Origin: a virus
Taxonomy: Duplodnaviria; Heunggongvirae; Uroviricota; Caudoviricetes
Reading direction: 5' to 3' (one strand)
Length of the DNA: 14,028 nucleotides
Virus record (IMG/VR): IMGVR_UViG_2563366825_000022
Span: 1 to 14,028 of that record
Below the pieces are notes generated by a model that did no database searches, was not told where the DNA came from, and worked only from the letters and a program-made list of their open reading frames with translations. Positions 1 through 14,028 of this stretch are shown piece after piece (position 1 is the stretch's first letter; each line of letters opens with the position of its first letter). Made by a program: the position numbers and the translations under genes.

Positions 1-1131
1 TCAAATGACCAGTTTTTTCCACTCTTTACCGCGTACATCGTTGTAAATATCGGTCATTTTTTGATTCGAATGACCCAGCAAAATTTGGGTATCAATTCCC
101 TGCTCCCTGAACAATCGCTCTGATAAAGATCTCTGCTCATGGAAAGAGGGTGGAGTGCCATTAGCGCGCCAGTTGTAATCCACAGAATCCCGGGCTTTTT
201 TAAATGCAACTGTCAACGTTGCTGGCTTAACCATCCCGCCGCGCTTAGCTGTCCCTTTAGCATGATGGTGGTGCAATAACCACGGACTAAGAACGCAATC
301 GCGACAGGATGACACTACATCATCCAGGGTGAGATTTAATTTATCGCAACGCAGAGCCAGAGGGATGGCAATCCGGGTTCCTGTTTTTTGCTGTTCGACA
401 TGAAGATAACCATCCCTGATATCCGAAAATTTCATTTTGCAAATATCTGAAAGGCGCTGGCCTGTCATCAGCGCTAGCAGCATACCACGCTGTAAAAAGT
501 AACCATCCTTTTCCGCTGCATTATAAATCATCATCCACTCATCAAAGGTCAGTCGTTGCCGTGATATCCGTACCTGTGGTTTTTTTGCCGATTCTGCAGG
601 GTTAAAGCCTGGCGAGACATCGCCCGTTTGCTGGGCCTCCCGGAAAACATCAATCAGTACTTTCCTGAAAATTTGTCCCATTCTGTTATGTCCTTTTGCC
701 TTGTAATCTTCCAGCACCGATACCACATCTTTTACGGTTATGGCATCTAATGGTCTGGTACCAAAACGTTCATCAAATACCCTGAGAGGGGATGCTTTCT
801 GTTTCAGTGTGTTGAGTTTGATCTCTCCGTTTTCATATCTTTCCTGTTGAATTTTTCGGTAACTATTCAGAAAAACAGAAACGGTTGATGAACCACCGGT
901 ATCACGAATAATTTTCTCCTGCAGAGTGAGCATTTGTTCCATTTGTTGCCTGGCAAGACGGCTGTTCGCTTCTGCTGCAATAGCTTCTGCCTGTTTCTGG
1001 TCAATACTGCCGAGCCCGTGATTTTTTCCTGTTATGGGATGCCTGTAACGCCAGTAAACTTTGTTATTTCTTTTGTCAAAATACGGAGATAATCCCGGAA
1101 CTTCAGTTTTATATTTTCGTGGGCGCGCCAT
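1..1131 (-). CDS. int: Phage tyrosine integrase (site-specific recombinase), 376 aa, complete
   Basis: Complete minus-strand ORF whose stop codon sits at 1-3. Length and C-terminal region (…LLGHSNQKMTDIYNDVRGKEW) fit lambda-type integrases with a catalytic Tyr near the C-terminus. Its start overlaps the excisionase ORF by 23 nt, as in int-xis modules. Confidence 0.9.
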   Translation of the reverse strand: MARPRKYKTEVPGLSPYFDKRNNKVYWRYRHPITGKNHGLGSIDQKQAEAIAAEANSRLARQQMEQMLTLQEKIIRDTGGSSTVSVFLNSYRKIQQERYENGEIKLNTLKQKASPLRVFDERFGTRPLDAITVKDVVSVLEDYKAKGHNRMGQIFRKVLIDVFREAQQTGDVSPGFNPAESAKKPQVRISRQRLTFDEWMMIYNAAEKDGYFLQRGMLLALMTGQRLSDICKMKFSDIRDGYLHVEQQKTGTRIAIPLALRCDKLNLTLDDVVSSCRDCVLSPWLLHHHHAKGTAKRGGMVKPATLTVAFKKARDSVDYNWRANGTPPSFHEQRSLSERLFREQGIDTQILLGHSNQKMTDIYNDVRGKEWKKLVI

Positions 1132-1357
1132 CTTCCAGTATCCTCTTCAAAGCAGGGGGATCTGTGGCGATCACTTCCGGCTTGTTTACCATTCCGACAA
1201 AGCGAGCTCGAGGATCCACTCGCCAGTGTCTTCCAACTTTTTTGGGGAGAGGAAATATCATTCCGGCTTTAGCGTATTTACTTAACGTGCCCGGAGTAGG
1301 GACCGGTTCACTGAATTCCTCTTTTGCCCACTCAGTGAGCAGAATAAGTCTTGCCAT
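1109..1357 (-). CDS. xis: Excisionase-like small DNA-binding protein (Xis), 82 aa
   Basis: Small basic ORF immediately upstream of int and overlapping it. The motif W..(7)..P…G.IFPLPKKVGRHWRV resembles the lambda Xis winged-helix signature. Confidence 0.65.
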   Translation of the reverse strand: MARLILLTEWAKEEFSEPVPTPGTLSKYAKAGMIFPLPKKVGRHWRVDPRARFVGMVNKPEVIATDPPALKRILEDGAPTKI

Positions 1358-1421: not shown

Positions 1422-3893
1422 TTAAAAATCAGCCTGACTCGGGATCAGTTTTTGCCAGATTGCTGAAACTTGTTTTGCCTGGTGACGGGCATCGTCCAGC
1501 GCATTGTGGGGTACGCCTTCGAATGGAATAGCCATTCTGACATCAAAGCCAATGGCATTACCCAGTTCAACGATTGTGCGTACATCGCGATCGTTGTAGT
1601 AAAGCCACGGGTAGGGGATCCCCTGCCGTTCATATGAACGGCGTAAAATTACGTTGTCGAAGTTGGCTCCATTTCCCCATATCTGAACAAAAAATTCACC
1701 GGAGTTTTCGTCGATAAATTCCCGCAATTGTAACAGTGCATCATCTAACGGGATTTCATCGGTCATAATGGCAGACTGCGCTTCACGTGATTGCTTCAGC
1801 CACCTTTTAATGACGTCACGATCAATGACTCCGCCAGCAGTTTCCAGATCGATAGTCTTACTAAATTCCGGTCCCATACCTCCGGTTTGCGGATCGAAAA
1901 ATATTGCACCTATTGAGATAATCGGGGCATCAGGATTTTTTCCCATGGTTTCAAGGCCTATCATTAGATGGTCACACGTCCTGCTGGTGGATGTGATTTC
2001 GTGATGACCGTTCACCTTAATTGAGTGATCTGCCGTCTCGCCAGTTTCATTATCGCTATCGTGATGCTGATTGCCGCCAGCATTCTCCTTGTGTGGATGT
2101 TCAGCGCCTTCCATTTTCTCCGGATCATCTTCCTGAACTTCAACCTGATACTCTTCATCGAATGTTTCCTGGTATGTTGCGTCGCCCATCACCGCGCCAC
2201 AATCAGGGCAGTTGCCGCCGCCGGTCTGACCGCAGGCGGTGCAGACTTTTTCCACTTCCTGTTGCGCCACTGGTTCAGGCTGTTTCGTTTCTGGCTCGTT
2301 TTGTAACGCATTTGGGCTGTTTTGTTCCGCTTTTTGGTAGTTCCGTTCCGATTCATGCTGGTTCTGGTTTACAGAATCGCGGGTCTGGATCCCCTTAACC
2401 CATTTCGGATCATTCGGGGCGCTAATCCCTTCAACAAATTCACCACGTGATACTGCAAGCAGTTCATCGGCGTCAGGCTGGCTGATATTGGCTGCCTGCA
2501 TAATTTTGTTTACTTCGTCAGCGGTAACTTTTACCGGCTCTGGTTGTGCGGTCGTGTCAGATGCACCAGTATTTTGTTGTGAACCTGAGTATGTACTGTT
2601 TTTGCGGGCGAAATATTCTTCTTTCGTGATTTCAGTAGCCCCGGCAGCCAGCGCCTTATCCAGACCAGAAAGTTTGTTTGCGCGACCGTATTTTTCGCCA
2701 TCCTTGTCGGTGAAGAGGAAGTAGAACGGCCCCTCACGCTCTACAGATGGTTCGACTTCCACTTTGCATTCGGTTTTTTCGTTGTCCGGAATTGCCGTTT
2801 CCACTGCATCAGTTTCTGGTACTGGCGACGAGAGAGTATCAGTTGCGCTCTGATTTGTTCCTTCATCTTCAAACACGCCCTTTGTAGTCAGGTATTCAGT
2901 AATGTATTTGTTCAGTGCCACAGGGTCTTTGTGAATGTCGATCGGACGTTCACGGACAAGGCCAAAAATAGTCTGGCGGTCGTAGCGAAGGGCATCAGGC
3001 TGTTTGCGCATTGATGCCGAGATACGCTTCCAGTCTTCGCGGTCGTTGTCGATAACTTCATTTTTTGCCCAGCGATGGATGCTGCCGTCAATGTTTCCGG
3101 CATCCACATCACCAGGCCAGAGAGCGTAGGCCAGTTCGTCATCCAGTGTTTTCCATGTCTGCTTGTATTCGCGATGAATGGTAGCAATGACCGGGCTGAT
3201 TTTTCCTGTTGAATTTTCAGTGTGCTGTTGATTGGTTCTGGCGCGGGCGAGATCAACAACAGACGTGTATTTTCCGGTTTCCTTGCGTTCACCTTCGCGA
3301 CGTTTTTTCCAGATGCGCATCTCTGCCTGAATTTCGGGCCATTTGGCACCAGGCTTACATTTATGCTTAACCCACCCGATGGCATGCAGCTTAAGCTCCG
3401 GATACATGGCGTTAACTTCTGGCATTTTCATCAACGCTTCAACGATATGTCCGTCGAATGTTGCCATGTCTTCCTGCAACAATTCCTGTGCGCTAATAAC
3501 CATATCAACGGTGATGTTTTCACATGTGTCGAACTTAACCATGACAGCGTTCTGTACTTCAGGGGCCAGCTTGTCAAAAGTGACGTTCATCGGATCTGAT
3601 TCAGTCTCAACCGGGACAAAGGAAGCAGACTCCTCATCCCAGCGGTTTTCCTGCATATATTCAGCATCCCAGGAATCGAGGGCAGGGCGGGGTATGCCGG
3701 GTTTATCCTCACAGACAATAAATTTATAAGCGCAGTCCTGAGCTGCAGGGAATTGCTCCAGAAATTGCCAATGAAATTTTGCGCGTGCGCGACGCTCATC
3801 ACCGGCTTCAATGGCAGTGGCCACCGCAACAGCGCTATCTTCTTTTATGGCCTGTTCATCAGGAATAGCAGCGCAAATAAAGACCTTACTCAT
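1422..3893 (-). CDS. RecE/YdfE-family prophage exonuclease, 823 aa, with a central zinc ribbon and a C-terminal DnaQ-like (DEDDh) 3'-5' exonuclease domain
   Basis: Long ORF with SD-like GAGGT upstream of ATG 3893. N-terminus MSKVFICAAIPDE… matches what I recall of YdfE/RecE N-terminal regions. It has an acidic linker and CTACGQTGGGNCPDCG (CxxC…CxxC). C-terminus carries Exo II-like GNGANFDNVIL and Exo III-like HNALDDARH motifs. Confidence 0.8.
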   Translation of the reverse strand: MSKVFICAAIPDEQAIKEDSAVAVATAIEAGDERRARAKFHWQFLEQFPAAQDCAYKFIVCEDKPGIPRPALDSWDAEYMQENRWDEESASFVPVETESDPMNVTFDKLAPEVQNAVMVKFDTCENITVDMVISAQELLQEDMATFDGHIVEALMKMPEVNAMYPELKLHAIGWVKHKCKPGAKWPEIQAEMRIWKKRREGERKETGKYTSVVDLARARTNQQHTENSTGKISPVIATIHREYKQTWKTLDDELAYALWPGDVDAGNIDGSIHRWAKNEVIDNDREDWKRISASMRKQPDALRYDRQTIFGLVRERPIDIHKDPVALNKYITEYLTTKGVFEDEGTNQSATDTLSSPVPETDAVETAIPDNEKTECKVEVEPSVEREGPFYFLFTDKDGEKYGRANKLSGLDKALAAGATEITKEEYFARKNSTYSGSQQNTGASDTTAQPEPVKVTADEVNKIMQAANISQPDADELLAVSRGEFVEGISAPNDPKWVKGIQTRDSVNQNQHESERNYQKAEQNSPNALQNEPETKQPEPVAQQEVEKVCTACGQTGGGNCPDCGAVMGDATYQETFDEEYQVEVQEDDPEKMEGAEHPHKENAGGNQHHDSDNETGETADHSIKVNGHHEITSTSRTCDHLMIGLETMGKNPDAPIISIGAIFFDPQTGGMGPEFSKTIDLETAGGVIDRDVIKRWLKQSREAQSAIMTDEIPLDDALLQLREFIDENSGEFFVQIWGNGANFDNVILRRSYERQGIPYPWLYYNDRDVRTIVELGNAIGFDVRMAIPFEGVPHNALDDARHQAKQVSAIWQKLIPSQADF

Positions 3894-3988
3894 TTTGTTT
3901 TAACCTCATTACAGATTTCAGGGTGAACGAATCCCTGCCATTGCTGGCATTTTTAATCCGTTGGTATGGTGTTAATATGGCTGGAGGG

Positions 3989-4177
3989 TTATCCAGCCGG
4001 TGTTTCGTTATTCAGGTACAGCGATACTTTTTTTACCGGGAGGCATTCACCAGAAATTTTTTGCTCGTCTCTTGCCTGGAGGCAGGATTCTTTACTGGCA
4101 TAAATTCCGGTAATCACATTCTGTGATTCACCCGTTATAAGAAAAACCGTCATCATCAGTGCAAATGCTGAAGTCAT
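3989..4177 (-). CDS. ydfD: Small membrane protein, YdfD-like (lysis-associated protein of the dicB operon), 62 aa
   Basis: Hydrophobic N-terminus (MTSAFALMMTVFLITG) and two Cys. Start is translationally coupled to the upstream ORF by an ATGA overlap at 4174-4177. Position directly downstream of dicB and size match Qin ydfD; the symbol is assigned by synteny only. Confidence 0.55.
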   Translation of the reverse strand: MTSAFALMMTVFLITGESQNVITGIYASKESCLQARDEQKISGECLPVKKVSLYLNNETPAG

Positions 4178-4362
4178 TGACGTTCTCCGAAAATACCAAG
4201 TTCAAGAAGAGCAATTCGGGAAAGTATGGAATTATCATTGAGCAGATAAGGCTCATATTTCCTCATATTAATGGCATCTTCAGTAAACTCCCGGTTACTG
4301 AGCAGAACACCAATATCAAAACAACCTTCAGACGTATTAACGTTTGGTAATAACGTTTCCAT
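4174..4362 (-). CDS. dicB: Cell-division inhibitor DicB, 62 aa (the ORF track extends to a GTG at 4467, which has no SD)
   Basis: Internal ATG at 4362..4360 is preceded by GAGGA with a 7-nt spacer. Product METLLPNVNTSEGCF… is 62 aa, matching DicB as I recall it. It lies immediately downstream of DicF, as in Qin. Confidence 0.7.
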   Translation of the reverse strand: METLLPNVNTSEGCFDIGVLLSNREFTEDAINMRKYEPYLLNDNSILSRIALLELGIFGERQ

Positions 4363-4536
4363 TATCGCGTCCTCAACAATGAATTTTGTGATGCAGTGCC
4401 TGGTGCCTCCAGGTGACGTTAACCAGTTAACAATTAACGCCGGATACAGAGAATCCACCCATAACACTGTTTTTGGTTTTAACTGTTCCGCGTGCGCTTA
4501 GCCGCATTCACCGCATCACAAAATTCACTTTAAAAA

Positions 4537-4589
4537 GGGCGGCAGAGCAGTCACGGAGTAAAACTGATACCGCCAAACGTCACCAGAAA
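4537..4589 (-). ncRNA. dicF: DicF small regulatory RNA (Hfq-dependent sRNA targeting ftsZ and other mRNAs), with an intrinsic terminator tail
   Basis: Minus-strand sequence UUUCUGGUGACGUUUGGCGGUAUCAGUUUUACUCCGUGACUGCUCUGCCGCCC followed by UUUUU matches the DicF sequence from memory. It ends in a GC-rich hairpin plus U-run and lies between the ydfC-like ORF and dicB. Confidence 0.8.
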
Positions 4590-7138: not shown

Positions 7139-7208
7139 GTGATAATAGCCATATCGAATCGCTTCCGGCAACTCGTGAGTAAAAGATTCGGTATCAGAAG
7201 AGGTGAGT

Positions 7209-8291
7209 ATGGCTAACGCCTGGCTCAGATTATGGCATGACATGCCAAATGACCCTAAGTGGCGAACAATTGCCAGAGTGTCAGGGCAGCCAATTGCAAC
7301 AGTGATGGCAGTGTATATCCACCTCCTGGTGAGCGCGTCACGAAATGTCACGCGAGGTCACATTGATGTCACGACAGAAGATTTGGCAAGTGCGCTCGAC
7401 GTGACAGAAGAGGTAATTGATTCAATTTTGCAGACGATGCAGGGGCGGGTACTTGATGGTGATTTAATCACTGGATGGGAAAAACGCCAGGTGCTTAAAG
7501 AGGACAACGGCAATATTTCGCAAACCGCAAAATCTCCTGCAGAGCGCAAGAGGGCGCAGCGAGAGAGGGAAAGAAAGCGGGAACAAAATGGCGATTGTCA
7601 CGGCGCGTCACGAAATGTCACGCACATGTCACGACGAGTCACGACAGATAAAGATACAGATAAAGATACAGATAAAGATACAGATCAAGAAGATCAAAAC
7701 ACTATGGTCCATGGCGTAAAAAACGCCACGAACCAGGCAGGGGATGTTCAGACCGTCAATCTTGGTCAGCCAGCAGGCACGACACCGGAAGCCGATTCAG
7801 CGTATGCGCTGAAAGCCGATTCGGGCGCTGTGCAGCAGGTGATGACCGCAAGGCCGGAGCAATCACACCAACTGCAGCAGCCCGAAGCCGATTCCGCCAT
7901 TCAGCGGGAAGCCGATCGGGTAGTCCCGGAAAACACCGGGCAGTCTGTGGGACGAGTGGATTATCCGGATGTGTTCGAACAGGTCTGGCGGGAGTACCCG
8001 TTGCGTGCCGGAGCAAACCCGAAGAAATCCGCTTTCAGTGCCTGGAAGGCCAGATTACGCGAGGGGGTGCCACCAGAAGCCATGCTGGATGGCGTGAGGC
8101 GTTACGCAAGATACTTGGCGGCTACCGGGAAAACGGGAACGGAATTTGTTCAGCGAGCGACGACGTTTTTTGGACCGGACCGGAATTTTGAGAACCCCTG
8201 GTTGCTCCCGGTAAGCGGCACGAACAACCAGCGTTGTGTGAATCATATTTCTGAACCGGATAACGAAATTCCGCCGGGCTTCAGGGGGTAA
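7209..8291 (+). CDS. Replication initiator, O-like/YdaU-type (DUF1376-like N-terminus), 360 aa, with an internal origin-like region
   Basis: GAGGTG precedes ATG 7209 (the ORF track starts at GTG 7203). N-terminal WLRLWHDMPNDPKWRTIA motif resembles the family I recall as DUF1376. Iteron clusters and a DKDT-repeat linker lie inside the gene, as lambda ori lies inside O. Confidence 0.7.
   Translation: MANAWLRLWHDMPNDPKWRTIARVSGQPIATVMAVYIHLLVSASRNVTRGHIDVTTEDLASALDVTEEVIDSILQTMQGRVLDGDLITGWEKRQVLKEDNGNISQTAKSPAERKRAQRERERKREQNGDCHGASRNVTHMSRRVTTDKDTDKDTDKDTDQEDQNTMVHGVKNATNQAGDVQTVNLGQPAGTTPEADSAYALKADSGAVQQVMTARPEQSHQLQQPEADSAIQREADRVVPENTGQSVGRVDYPDVFEQVWREYPLRAGANPKKSAFSAWKARLREGVPPEAMLDGVRRYARYLAATGKTGTEFVQRATTFFGPDRNFENPWLLPVSGTNNQRCVNHISEPDNEIPPGFRG
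7337..7373. repeat. Iteron-like cluster 1: four GTCACG/GTCACA hexamers at 10-11 bp phasing
   Basis: Hexamers at 7337, 7347, 7357 and 7368. The surrounding 21-nt string GCGCGTCACGAAATGTCACGC is repeated exactly at 7603-7623. Confidence 0.6.
7597..7643. repeat. Iteron-like cluster 2: five GTCACG hexamers at 10-11 bp phasing, adjacent to an AT-rich tandem repeat (putative ori core)
   Basis: Hexamers at 7597, 7607, 7617, 7628 and 7638, followed directly by an AT-rich repeat. The layout mirrors lambda ori (iterons plus AT-rich region inside the initiator gene). Confidence 0.6.
7647..7682. repeat. 12-bp perfect tandem repeat (GATAAAGATACA) x3, encoding a DKDT-repeat linker
   Basis: Three exact copies followed by a degenerate copy (GATCAAGAAGATCAAAAC). 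AT-rich, immediately 3' of iteron cluster 2. Confidence 0.8.
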
Positions 8292-8910: not shown

Positions 8911-9597
8911 ATGACCCCAATAAAAATATTTATGACTATTGCTGATTTCAAACGGCCTAAATTGGAGCTCCCAAACGGGGCAAACAAACTACTACTGCAC
9001 TCTTGCTGTGCTCCATGTTCCGGTGAAGTGATGGAGGCGCTTCAGGCCTCGGGAATCGACTACACCATCTTTTTCTACAACCCGAACATTCATCCTCAGA
9101 AAGAGTATTTAATTCGTAAGGATGAAAATATTCGCTTTGCTGAACAACACGGCGTGCCGTTTATCGATGCTGATTACGACACCGACAACTGGTTTGAACG
9201 TGCCAAAGGAATGGAATGGGAGCCTGAGAGGGGGATCCGTTGTACCATGTGTTTTGACATGCGTTTTGAGCGGACAGCGTTGTACGCTGCTGAAAATGGT
9301 TTCAGTGTGATCAGCAGTTCACTGGGCATTTCGCGCTGGAAAAATATGCAGCAGGTTAACGAGTGTGGGCGGCGAGCTGTTGCGCATTATCCGGGTATGG
9401 TATACTGGGATTATAACTGGCGCAAGCAGGGCGGCTCGTCCCGTATGATTGAAATCAGCAAGCGCGAAAAATTCTATCAGCAGGAATATTGTGGCTGTGT
9501 GTATTCTCTGCGCGATACCAATCTACACCGCAAATCTCAGGGACGCCCTCTTATCAAAATTGGCCAACTCCACTACGGAAAAGAAGAGAAGGAGTGA
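8911..9597 (+). CDS. queH: QueH-like protein (DUF208; epoxyqueuosine reductase family, Fe-S), 228 aa
   Basis: N-terminal [11 protein letters not shown] motif followed by FFYNPNIHP, with further Cys pairs ([14 protein letters not shown]), fits my recollection of DUF208/QueH. No clear SD; alternative ATG at 8932. Preceded by a 150-bp intergenic region. Confidence 0.6.
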
Positions 9598-9834
9598 TTT
9601 TATGGATCACCTTTCTGATTGATTTCATATTGGCGAGGTGACGTGAGTTAAGTAGAATTGCTGCGGGTGCTTGAGGCTATCTGCCTCAGGCATGAACACC
9701 AAAAGGCAGATAGAGAAAAGCCCCAGTTAACATTACGCGTCCTGCAAGACGCTTAACATTAATCTGAGGCTCAATCCATGCTGAACACATGTAGGTTAGC
9801 CTCTTACGTGCCGAAAGGCAAGGAGAAGCAGGCT

Positions 9835-9990
9835 ATGAAGCAGCAAAAGGCGATGTTAATCGCCCTGATCGTCATCTGTTTAACCGTCATAGTGACGGCA
9901 CTGGTAACGAGGAAAGACCTCTGCGAGGTACGAATCCGAACCGGCCAGACGGAGGTCGCTGTCTTCACAGCTTACGAACCTGAGGAGTAA
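9835..9990 (+). CDS. hokD: Hok/Gef-family type I toxin (HokD/RelF-like), 51 aa
   Basis: AAGGAGAAG precedes ATG 9835. Product MKQQKAMLIALIVICLTVIVTALVTRKDLCEVRIRTGQTEVAVFTAYEPEE has the Hok transmembrane helix and conserved C-terminal region. The ORF track's in-frame extension from ATG 9778 may be a mok-like leader frame. Confidence 0.85.
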   Translation: MKQQKAMLIALIVICLTVIVTALVTRKDLCEVRIRTGQTEVAVFTAYEPEE

Positions 9991-10058
9991 GAGACCAGGC
10001 GGGGGAGAAATCCCTCGCCACCTCTGATGTGTCAGGCATCCTCAACGCACCCGCACTT

Positions 10059-10086
10059 AACCCGCTTCGGCGGGTTTTGTTTTTTC
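10059..10086 (+). terminator. Intrinsic terminator downstream of hok
   Basis: Hairpin CCCGC-TTCG-GCGGG followed by TTTTGTTTTTT. Confidence 0.65.
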
Positions 10087-10157
10087 CTGGCATTCTGGTT
10101 TACAATTCGCACGCCAGCCTGAACAACTGGCACCTGCTGCGCCAGCAGAGACAACCG

Positions 10158-10436
10158 ATGGCGCACGATACCAAATTATACAATTCTGATAATTCTGCCG
10201 TCTTTGCCAGCAGGTGCGGGCGGCGTTCTCATGCATTCAAATCTGACAGGTTACAGCACGCCCCATGCACTGAAGAACAGGCCGAATGGCTGATTCAGTG
10301 TTACCGCAGGCGTGGATACGAGGTTAAGAAAGCCCTCAGCCTCGATTATCGTCACTGGATAATCTACGTCAGGCTGCCGTACTCCGAGCGCCCACCGCGT
10401 CCGTCCCGCACATTCCAGCAACGCATCTGGAGGTAA
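10158..10436 (+). CDS. Rem-like small protein, 92 aa
   Basis: Internal ATG of ORF 10029..10436, chosen because the hok terminator lies inside the upstream part of that ORF. Sits between hok and the DUF968 gene, as rem does in Qin. Weak SD. Confidence 0.45.
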   Translation: MAHDTKLYNSDNSAVFASRCGRRSHAFKSDRLQHAPCTEEQAEWLIQCYRRRGYEVKKALSLDYRHWIIYVRLPYSERPPRPSRTFQQRIWR

Positions 10437-13269: not shown

Positions 13270-14028
13270 ATGCTTAGTACTGTAAAAATATCCAGTTGTG
13301 AGTTAATCAACGCCGACTGCCTGGAATTTATCCGGTCGTTACCCGAAAATTCTGTTGACCTGATAGTCACGGACCCGCCGTACTTTAAAGTGAAGCCTGA
13401 GGGCTGGGATAACCAGTGGAAGGGCGACGATGATTACCTGAAGTGGCTGGACCAGTGTCTTGCGCAGTTCTGGCGGGTGCTGAAACCTGCCGGAAGTCTT
13501 TACCTGTTCTGTGGCCATCGCCTGGCGTCTGACATTGAAATCATGATGCGTGAACGCTTCAATGTGCTGAACCATATTATCTGGGCGAAGCCGTCCGGAC
13601 GCTGGAACGGGTGCAACAAGGAAAGCCTGAGGGCATATTTCCCCGCCACAGAGCGCATTCTGTTCGCGGAACATTATCAGGGGCCGTATCGCCCGAAAGA
13701 TGCCGGGTATGAGGCGAAGGGCAGGGCACTGAAACAGCATGTGATGGCCCCGCTGATTTCTTACTTTCGTGATGCGCGTGCTGCCCTGGGGATAACGGCA
13801 AAACAGATTGCTGATGCCACAGGAAAGAAAAACATGGTGTCGCACTGGTTCAGTGCCAGCCAGTGGCAGCTACCGGACGAAAGCGATTATCTGAAATTAC
13901 AGGCGCTGTTTGCCCGGGTGGCAGAAGATAAGCATCAGCGCGGAGAACTGGAAAAGCCACATCACCAACTGGTCAGCACATACAGTGAACTGAACCGGCA
14001 GTATACGGAACTGCAGAGTGAATATAAG
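13270..14028 (+). CDS. DNA amino-methyltransferase (beta-class N6-adenine or N4-cytosine, DPPY motif), 3'-truncated by the window end
   Basis: Hand-translated open frame from ATG 13270 to the window end (253 codons, no stop). It is absent from the ORF track because it has no stop. N-terminus …CLEFIRSLPENSVDLIVTDPPYF… then VLKPAGSLYLF. An in-frame TGA lies just upstream of the ATG. Confidence 0.8.
   Translation, partial: MLSTVKISSCELINADCLEFIRSLPENSVDLIVTDPPYFKVKPEGWDNQWKGDDDYLKWLDQCLAQFWRVLKPAGSLYLFCGHRLASDIEIMMRERFNVLNHIIWAKPSGRWNGCNKESLRAYFPATERILFAEHYQGPYRPKDAGYEAKGRALKQHVMAPLISYFRDARAALGITAKQIADATGKKNMVSHWFSASQWQLPDESDYLKLQALFARVAEDKHQRGELEKPHHQLVSTYSELNRQYTELQSEYK

Follow-up and report, generated by a model that had tools for sequence, protein, structure and literature searches.

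The window (the whole stretch of DNA analysed, 14,028 nucleotides) carries a rare allele of a common prophage exonuclease gene, in which glycine replaces the first of the five conserved residues of a DEDDh nuclease domain. Apart from this change in the Exo I motif, which has a canonical D-x-E in the rest of the family, nothing at the locus is unusual. The gene is most likely an intact form of the Qin gene ydfE, in which a part shared with RecE is joined to a DEDDh module, and the nuclease would have been inactivated, or at least severely crippled, by missense change in a prophage that otherwise looks intact. The features referred to below are as follows.

1422..3893, minus strand: whole gene for a prophage 'exonuclease' of 823 aa; its counterpart in K-12 Qin is the pseudogene ydfE, whereas here it is intact (ORF translation, full-length phrog_2082 match)
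3126..3893, minus strand: N-terminal region, aa 1-256, YdfE-like (96% identity to K-12 YdfE)
2019..3158, minus strand: central region, aa 246-625, also present in RecE (exonuclease VIII), outside its nuclease domain (NCBIfam PRK09709, BLASTP)
2199..2243, minus strand: CTACGQTGGGNCPDC, a CxxC...CxxC motif resembling a zinc ribbon, within the RecE-like linker (read from sequence)
1455..1970, minus strand: Rv2179c/DexA-like DEDDh 3'-5' exonuclease domain, aa 642-813 (PF16473, phrog_255, AF2/Foldseek)
1941..1964, minus strand: Exo I motif MIGLETMG; codon 646 at 1956-1958 is GGC (Gly), GAC (Asp) in the family
1803..1805, minus strand: codon 697, Arg (W697R), second W of a WW pair also present in DexA (Trp in 114/118 homologues)
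1650..1673, minus strand: Exo II motif NGANFDNV; D746 corresponds to DexA D119 (alignment)
1611..1613, minus strand: codon 761, Tyr (C761Y) (Cys in 112/117 homologues)
1482..1508, minus strand: Exo III motif HNALDDARH; from its H-x4-D pattern, H796 and D801 are taken as the equivalents of DexA H186 and D191
1109..1357, minus strand: excisionase gene directly downstream of the exonuclease gene (Pfam Exc)
3989..4467, minus strand: ydfD (DUF1482) and dicB, immediately upstream of the exonuclease gene in the same leftward early string, an order also seen around dicB in K-12 Qin (Pfam DUF1482, DicB)
4537-4588, minus strand: DicF RNA

The open reading frame starts with ATG, preceded by an AGG Shine-Dalgarno-like element, and its product covers the phrog_2082 profile over positions 1-823 of 823. 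Identical 823-aa proteins are found on 24 contigs, E. coli records among them. The original prediction described a RecE-family mosaic, and the likeness of its N-terminal and central parts to YdfE and RecE was borne out. For the N-terminal region, precomputed annotation of close homologues gives the Pfam families PF27430 and PF27432. An AF2 model of aa 1-345 (pLDDT 81.6, pTM 0.36) had zero Foldseek matches at E<=1e-3 in PDB or BFVD. Further along, BLASTP aligned aa 262-625 with residues 278-591 of K-12 RecE; the alignment ends just before both nuclease domains, and from aa ~480 to 625 the match is nearly residue-for-residue. At the nucleotide level, positions 1453-1856 of the gene are 85% identical to Rac-SA53 recE, and the zinc-ribbon-like motif is kept in K-12 RecE as CNACGQTGGDNCPDC. 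The NCBIfam RecE equivalog PRK09709 was matched over aa 246-625 only (profile positions 271-602 of 877), at 280 bits, below the cutoff of 1269. The label 'RecE-family' therefore suits the central region and is misleading for the protein as a whole, since only that region is shared, the equivalog cutoff is failed and the RecE nuclease domain is absent. The part in front of the nuclease domain is found with more than one nuclease: 48 long relatives of aa 1-640 (47 from the database plus the window protein) include 19 with Exonuc_VIII, 12 with DUF3799 (PDDEXK) and 6 with Rv2179c-like modules.

As had been predicted, the C-terminus is of the DEDDh type, with NGANFDNV and HNALDDARH in the expected places and without the RecE nuclease. 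The sole significant Pfam match of the protein was PF16473 (Rv2179c-like; aa 642-813, E 6e-60), which scored 202.4 bits against a gathering cutoff of 27 and was covered over profile positions 2-177 of 177. In the same Pfam search Exonuc_VIII (PF06630) had zero match at E<=1. The PHROG containing T4 DexA, phrog_255, also matched (E 3e-70). An AF2 model of the domain (pLDDT 86.2, pTM 0.84) had DexA as its best Foldseek match in PDB (8KEL, E 9e-11, TM 0.71-0.73), with RNase T and Orn/REXO2 following; these and Cap18 were all matched with probability 1.00, indicating an RNase H-like DEDDh fold. When compared with the catalytic residues of DexA, as listed in PMC12153337, G646, E648 and D746 fall on D7, E9 and D119. 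The Exo III stretch lies outside the DexA alignments, so that H796 and D801 were assigned by the H-x4-D motif only; both are invariant in 112/112 alignable homologues. Four of the five DEDDh residues are thus kept (E648, D746, H796, D801), with G646 in place of the first Asp. The domain is a PF16473/DEDDh member by descent and fold, without a canonical active site.

The reading of IGLETMG as an Exo I motif with Gly for Asp was upheld by four independent alignments (the Pfam profile, phmmer against T4 DexA, the family profile against DexA, and hhalign), all of which place G646 on the catalytic Asp. No different register was found. At this position, which corresponds to DexA D7 and to D12 of DnaQ (epsilon), Asp is present in 99/99 alignable homologues and Gly in 0, and Asp is likewise found in every fused or standalone relative inspected. 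H or E at 646 in six database matches proved to be alignment artefacts of deletion or fusion fragments. Two nearby candidates for a substitute carboxylate were rejected: the Asp of FFDPQTGG varies (D/E/N/A) among homologues, and the position of D641 is also variable. The replacement itself is a single A-to-G transition (GAC to GGC). It occurs together with D672G, T694V, W697R, C761Y and R764L, a combination absent from other sampled lineages.

In characterised DEDDh enzymes the first carboxylate binds the catalytic metals, and activity is lost when it is replaced, as in DnaQ D12A and Klenow D355A. By analogy with these enzymes, a single base change that removes one catalytic Asp has probably left the nuclease of the window dead.

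The exact 57-mer of the window occurs in 5 of ~3,630 matching records, all five being complete genomes, in each of which the exonuclease ORF is intact and annotated as a normal CDS. One further record carries Gly646 on the common (consensus) haplotype, giving 6 of ~3,650 matching records in total. Gly646 thus sits on two downstream haplotypes, the window type and that of TW10690, and all four combinations exist at sites 645.3 and 646.2. Independent recurrence of D646G was considered and rejected as a proven event: the window and TW10690 share an upstream haplotype (nt 300-1935), so that one origin with later recombination is just as plausible. The window gene is itself an allele-level recombinant, with a 5' part like that of RM10466 and a 3' part like that of EC2.

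In the exonuclease domain, the private changes of the window lineage comprise 7 nonsynonymous and 4 synonymous nucleotides, compared with 8:8 in another lineage (L007), both being small numbers. Pairwise dN/dS in the domain is 0.15-0.23 for the window allele and 0.16-0.19 among D-alleles, and does not set the window allele apart. Long-term relaxed selection is therefore not demonstrated, although the private-substitution count and the changes at conserved sites are suggestive of relaxation. Constraint is strong over the first 340 codons (dN/dS ~0.09-0.13).

The mosaic protein and the lack of an annealing protein had both been remarked on at this locus, with the proviso that a standard arrangement in the prophage family would refute the idea. 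The absence itself was confirmed: xis follows the exonuclease gene directly with no recT between them, and zero RecT, Bet or Erf matches were found in any ORF of the window, upstream genes included. However, Qin/ompW-type lambdoid prophages normally have both features, in a layout that was catalogued before, so that neither is peculiar to the window; on these two of its three points the prediction is refuted by its own terms. The protein matches PHROG 2082 at full length and falls in a 90% cluster of 23,183 members, and DNA of the exonuclease domain is present in 4,075/5,426 complete E. coli genomes (~75%). The order dicB-ydfD-exo-xis-int is the same in 8 related loci, and no recT, bet or erf is annotated in the 8 related early regions. 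The standalone homologues inspected also lie in a leftward early string beside xis-int. In E. coli EC2, whose exonuclease is identical to that of the window from codon 341 to the stop, the complete prophage has no annotated RecT, Bet or Erf, and its late, lysis and tail modules are complete. PADLOC had zero matches to the exonuclease or to any of seven neighbouring ORFs.

Taken together, these data favour the reading of an intact ydfE with an inactivated nuclease. The exonuclease gene closes the leftward early string of a Qin/ompW-type lambdoid prophage, just ahead of xis-int, and encodes a three-part protein: the N-terminal region, a RecE-shared linker with a zinc-ribbon and, where RecE has its 5'-3' PD-(D/E)XK nuclease, a DEDDh 3'-5' exonuclease domain of the T4 DexA/Rv2179c type at the C-terminus. 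The family nuclease presumably trims DNA 3' ends in lytic development by two-metal-ion catalysis, and would act without a phage annealing protein. In the window allele, GAC to GGC takes away the first DEDDh carboxylate, and W697R and C761Y alter two further near-invariant positions. A nuclease inactivated in an otherwise intact-looking prophage would imply that its activity is dispensable for keeping the prophage. The intact ORF in all carriers is compatible with a retained non-catalytic role as well.

Several other explanations were weighed. An error of sequencing or assembly at the Gly codon, as a difference of only one base might suggest, is effectively refuted by the identical 57-mer in five complete genomes and the exact protein on 24 contigs. 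It is rather improbable that the Gly646 allele is still active, with the remaining ligands, water or a neighbouring carboxylate holding the metal, and the change being a polymorphism that is neutral or alters specificity. A working enzyme would fit with the intact ORF, the retention of four DEDDh residues out of five, the high confidence of the folded model and a pairwise dN/dS that is not raised. However, the Asp is invariant in the 99 alignable homologues and also in DexA, RNase T and epsilon, no conserved carboxylate lies nearby (D641 and D667 are both variable among homologues), and W697 and C761 are lost on the same allele. We regard as equally doubtful a nuclease-dead variant under selection for a non-catalytic role, either in binding or capping DNA 3' ends or in a RecE-like scaffold function with a dead binding module. 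Gly646 on two different downstream haplotypes, a frame kept in all carriers and the strong constraint on the N-terminal 340 codons would be expected of such a variant. Yet only 6 of ~3,650 matching records carry Gly646, one origin with recombination explains both haplotypes without selection, and W697R and C761Y resemble decay more than refinement.

It is unlikely, if slightly less so, that the family is an HREX-type defence or exclusion nuclease, like E. coli EcD, acting against incoming 5hmC phage DNA, with the window allele as a lost-defence variant. The gene lies in the leftward early string beside xis-int and should be silent in lysogens if it behaves like the dicB region of K-12 Qin, which is repressed by DicA. 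Moreover, no PADLOC model matches the window protein, the equivalent of DexA W152 is a Tyr (Y766), and EcD, with MIDTET at its start and TIPETY at its end, is another protein, assayed from a plasmid only. In favour of a defensive role, no solved structure is closer than that of T4 DexA, which falls in a PHROG that matches the window protein, and Kang et al. (2025, PMC12153337) report protection against T4 by a DexA homologue from bacteria. A broader version, in which the family processes DNA ends or foreign DNA independently of an annealase (as HREX-like exclusion or anti-defence) and the dead Gly646 form is kept as a binding or scaffold protein instead of decaying, is given somewhat less credence still. 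Finally, the exonuclease is very improbably one half of a RecET-like two-component recombinase with its annealing protein elsewhere in the prophage. The shared RecE central region and a position relative to xis-int like that of recE in Rac would agree with this, but the predicted polarity is 3'-5', which would leave no 3' single strand for RecT-type annealing proteins to load on, and no RecT, Bet or Erf was found in the ORFs of the window or is annotated in the 8 related early regions or the complete EC2 prophage.

Under the favoured reading of an inactivated nuclease, the window holds a catalogued prophage gene in a form that has probably lost its function, which matters little as found. The family to which it belongs is of wider concern. 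It is present in about three quarters of complete E. coli genomes, and a search of the literature on Rv2179c, PF16473 and ydfE found no functional study, characterisation or enzymology of the fused protein. RefSeq and phage records often name these proteins 'exodeoxyribonuclease VIII' despite the missing RecE nuclease and the opposite expected polarity. A RecE-like scaffold with interchangeable PD-(D/E)XK or DEDDh modules offers a handle on the role of the RecE N-terminal part, and natural D646G alleles are predicted to be ready-made catalytic-null controls.

Among known systems, Mycobacterium tuberculosis Rv2179c is the founding member of PF16473, the Pfam family in which the window domain falls. 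It is reportedly a small cellular 3'-5' exoribonuclease assayed on RNA. A PDB search with the single window sequence did not reach Rv2179c itself. The E. coli DexA homologue EcD ('HREX') is reported to degrade 5hmC DNA and to confer protection from T4 (Kang et al. 2025, PMC12153337). EcD is reported to retain all catalytic residues and the Trp, and W152 and D169 of DexA are reported for 5hmC recognition (PMC12153337). It belongs to the same superfamily as the window domain, but is a different protein as judged by its primer-encoded termini (MIDTET...TIPETY), the only parts compared, and it is absent from the homologue lists gathered with the window protein. Judged by the same residues, the window protein lacks the catalytic Asp and has Y766 for W152, while D169 lies beyond the alignable region.

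T4 DexA (exonuclease A; PDB 8KEL/8KEN), a DEDDh 3'-5' DNA exonuclease, is the best PDB match of the window domain in both sequence profile (E 7e-15, ~20% identity) and structure. DexA and the exonuclease family share the (M/I)IDxETMG, WW, FD and NxRDxRT motifs. However, DexA is a free-standing protein of 227 aa with extra loops, whereas in the window protein the domain is fused to 640 additional residues, and D7 and W152 of DexA are replaced by Gly and Tyr in the window. The RecE (exonuclease VIII) of Rac has a linker and zinc-ribbon region homologous to aa 262-625 of the window protein (locally ~85% nt identity), and recE occupies the same kind of place, in an early-left gene string near xis-int. 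In contrast, the N-terminal 260 aa have no BLASTP match to K-12 RecE. RecE carries a PF06630 PD-(D/E)XK nuclease, which the window protein lacks, its predicted polarity (3'-5') being opposite, and Rac recT overlaps the end of recE, whereas the window gene has no adjacent recT. The closest counterpart is the phrog_2082 family (WP_000048435.1 and WP_179231430.1; phages mEp460, Tritos and PPompW; the K-12 Qin remnant ydfE), which is a colinear full-length match at 91-100% aa identity and occupies the same dicB-ydfD-exo-xis-int position. The family has Asp646, whereas the window allele has D646G, D672G, T694V, W697R, C761Y and R764L.

By descent and fold, the window protein is a member of a catalogued prophage exonuclease family and not a RecE-family nuclease, and the only unusual feature of its locus is the change in the Exo I motif. 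The exonuclease gene is a single ORF of 823 codons with an ATG start and an AGG Shine-Dalgarno-like element upstream. Its neighbours match a Qin/Rac-like lambdoid early region, as follows:

1-1131: integrase, downstream of the exonuclease gene
1109-1357: excisionase, downstream of the exonuclease gene
1422-3893(-): exonuclease gene
Upstream of the exonuclease gene, leftward transcription continuing: ydfD/DUF1482, dicB, DicF RNA, a ydfC-sized ORF and ydfA/DUF1391
4537-4588(-): DicF sRNA (76.7 bits), between the dicB ORF and the ydfC-like ORF
Early region: S24 cI-type repressor
Rightward genes: cro, ydaT, replication genes, QueH, sok/hok, DUF968, rusA and Q
9665-9990(+): sok antisense RNA (120.5 bits), overlapping a hok-family toxin ORF (9778-9990)

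The DicF sRNA and sok/hok are typical of Qin-like prophages. The QueH (epoxyqueuosine reductase) homologue lies in the early-right region at 8911-9597(+) (PF02677, E 1e-65). It is annotated in the related prophage of E. coli EC2 and absent from the DETEC-S589 relative, and thus looks like a tRNA-modification-linked cargo gene. Three ORFs, at 7203-8291(+) (362 aa), 10029-10436(+) (135 aa) and 13339-13845(-) (168 aa), had no Pfam match at E<=0.01 and no PADLOC match. The first of these occupies the replication-initiator position, and its EC2 counterpart is annotated as a DnaT-like ssDNA-binding domain protein.

The sole significant Pfam match of the exonuclease was to PF16473 (Rv2179c-like 3′-5′ exoribonuclease) at aa 642-813 (E 6e-60, whole profile covered). 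The NCBIfam RecE equivalog matched aa 246-625 only, corresponding to profile positions 271-602 of 877, and with 280 bits fell far short of the 1269-bit cutoff. Using BLASTP against K-12 RecE, aa 262-625 aligned with RecE 278-591, almost residue-for-residue at approximately aa 480-625 (CxxC...CxxC ribbon included), and the alignment ended just short of the nuclease domains of both proteins. The K-12 Qin pseudogene ydfE, truncated by IS2, shares 96% identity with aa 1-256. Taken together, these matches show that the original prediction correctly described a mosaic with a RecE/YdfE-like front and a DEDDh C-terminus, the alignments placing the junction at about aa 625-640. In RecE the nuclease comprises residues 564-866, and the function of the N-terminal part is not known (reviewed in PMC11611040). 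Homologue records are often named ‘exodeoxyribonuclease VIII’ or ‘exonuclease VIII, ds DNA exonuclease’. Both names are a propagated misannotation, since the protein lacks the RecE nuclease domain and has a 3′-5′ DEDDh domain instead.

A profile of 45 family sequences matched only T4 DexA (8KEL/8KEN, E 7e-15) among PDB sequences. DexA was also the best structural match (E 9e-11, TM 0.71-0.73) to an AF2 model of aa 630-823 (pLDDT 86.2, pTM 0.84), followed by RNase T, Orn/REXO2 and Cap18. Moreover, phrog_255, which contains T4 DexA, matches the window protein (E 3e-70). The PF16473 match, the AF2 fold, the DexA match and the motif correspondence all identify the C-terminal domain as a DexA-type DEDDh exonuclease. 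The catalytic residues of DexA are the equivalents of epsilon D12, E14, D103, H162 and D167 (Kang et al., PMC12153337). In all alignments made, window G646, E648 and D746 correspond to DexA D7, E9 and D119, confirming the Exo I register originally assumed. The invariant H-x4-D of Exo III is made up of H796 and D801, the active site being spelled G-E-D-H-D and not D-E-D-H-D. The legend of Figure 5 in PMC12153337 gives the catalytic glutamate of DexA as E12, whilst the DexA sequence and alignments put the Exo I pair at D7/E9; E12 is probably a numbering slip carried from epsilon D12/E14.

The mosaic and the missing annealing partner are both real. However, neither is peculiar to this locus; both are usual among prophages of this kind. 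The original prediction had named a standard arrangement for the prophage family as grounds for refuting it, and for the mosaic and the missing partner such an arrangement is what was found, so its interpretation is supported only in part. The family phrog_2082 (‘exonuclease’) matches the window protein end to end (1-823 of 823). The exact protein is already present in NCBI for E. coli (24 contigs), within a 90% cluster of 23,183 members. Of 5,426 complete E. coli genomes, 4,075 contain matches to the 589-nt domain DNA, some with as many as 7 copies, and the cultured phages mEp460, Tritos, HannyBb and the PPompW phages carry the gene at 92-94% nucleotide identity. The order dicB-ydfD-exo-xis-int was found in 8/8 related loci, none with recT. 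No RecT, Bet or Erf is annotated anywhere in the complete EC2 prophage (at ompW), where the lysis, head and tail modules are all intact in extent. This group without recT differs from Rac, where recT directly follows recE. When aa 1-640 were searched against 1.84 billion representative proteins and Pfam was run on 48 long sequences (47 matches and the window protein), 19 had Exonuc_VIII, 12 PDDEXK-like DUF3799, 6 Rv2179c-like and 1 RecT domains, so this scaffold carries interchangeable nuclease modules.

The altered Exo I motif, by comparison, stands as predicted. Codon 646 is GGC (1956-1958) and GAC in relatives. Among 120 representative homologues this position is Asp in 99, a gap in 15 (fragments) and Gly in none; six apparent H/E residues proved to be misaligned deletion or fusion fragments. 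The motif (M/V)(I/V)D(L/I/V)E occurs in all fused relatives, down to proteins of 385-901 aa from other lineages, and in all standalone homologues. Of ~3,630 records matched in an exact 57-mer search, five carry the window haplotype (ATA GGC), all of them complete genomes: EC2, SCU-104 and three SW0716 isolates. One further genome, TW10690, combines Gly with the common haplotype (ATC GGC), the rest of its exonuclease domain being consensus:

L008 (TW10690) 1593-4064: D646G gene, in a prophage next to potC

Another locus (L009) reads ATA GAC, so that each of the four possible pairings at the two sites is represented. The window and TW10690 have common upstream sequence (nt 300-1935), so a single origin with recombination is as likely as recurrence of D646G. 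The substitution is rare and probably inactivating, and is the one distinctive feature of the window protein.

With six comparators considered, 11 nucleotide changes in codons 641-823 are private to the window lineage. Of these, seven are nonsynonymous and affect six codons (D646G, D672G, T694V, W697R, C761Y, R764L), and three changes fall at positions conserved in >=96% of homologues: D646, W697 (Trp 114/118) and C761 (Cys 112/117). These fit inactivation followed by drift. The evidence is thin, since pairwise dN/dS of the domain is 0.15-0.23 for the window allele, no higher than the 0.16-0.19 among D-alleles (Asp at codon 646), and another lineage (L007) has 8:8 private changes. At the allele level, moreover, the gene is recombinant: codons 1-340 are near RM10466 (3 codons differ) and codons 341-823, to the stop, are identical to EC2, each differing substantially from the window in the other part (comparison loci L003 and L004).

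Some database ‘standalone’ homologues may be gene fragments. One E. coli locus (L013 737-3127) has three ORFs between ydfD and xis, of 456, 157 and 183 aa, the first 86% identical to aa 1-452; P0080, a 183-aa ‘standalone’ 3′-5′ exonuclease, is the last piece of this three-way split copy of the exonuclease gene. In a Salmonella prophage, a 189-aa Rv2179c-like standalone exonuclease directly precedes xis-int (L016 4703-6570). Both cases point to a conserved place beside xis-int for the nuclease module, fused or not. The Salmonella gene directly follows a 432-aa ORF matching PF04447 (dATP/dGTP pyrophosphohydrolase-like), possibly forming a nucleotide- or DNA-metabolism pair.

The Exo I Asp of DEDDh enzymes is a ligand of the catalytic metal ions, and its replacement (DnaQ D12A, Klenow D355A) lowers exonuclease activity by orders of magnitude. 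The window protein would then be catalytically dead or severely impaired, and the prophage would tolerate the loss. In D-alleles, the domain may trim DNA 3′ ends when the phage grows lytically, with no phage annealase involved. By analogy with the dicB region of K-12 Qin, which DicA represses, the exonuclease gene would be expected to stay silent in lysogens. The worthwhile wider question, which the window locus does not raise specifically, is the role of a very common, annealase-less, RecE-scaffolded 3′-5′ exonuclease. As candidate roles, it might scavenge DNA as DexA does, process ends for the RecA pathways of the host, or exclude phages with modified DNA, an activity reported for EcD, an E. 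coli DexA homologue (PMC12153337). A simple assignment to HREX, the 5hmC-recognising DexA/EcD exonucleases, is disfavoured: PADLOC gave no match for the window exonuclease, the position of DexA W152 is Tyr in the window protein, and EcD is a different protein by its primer-encoded termini.
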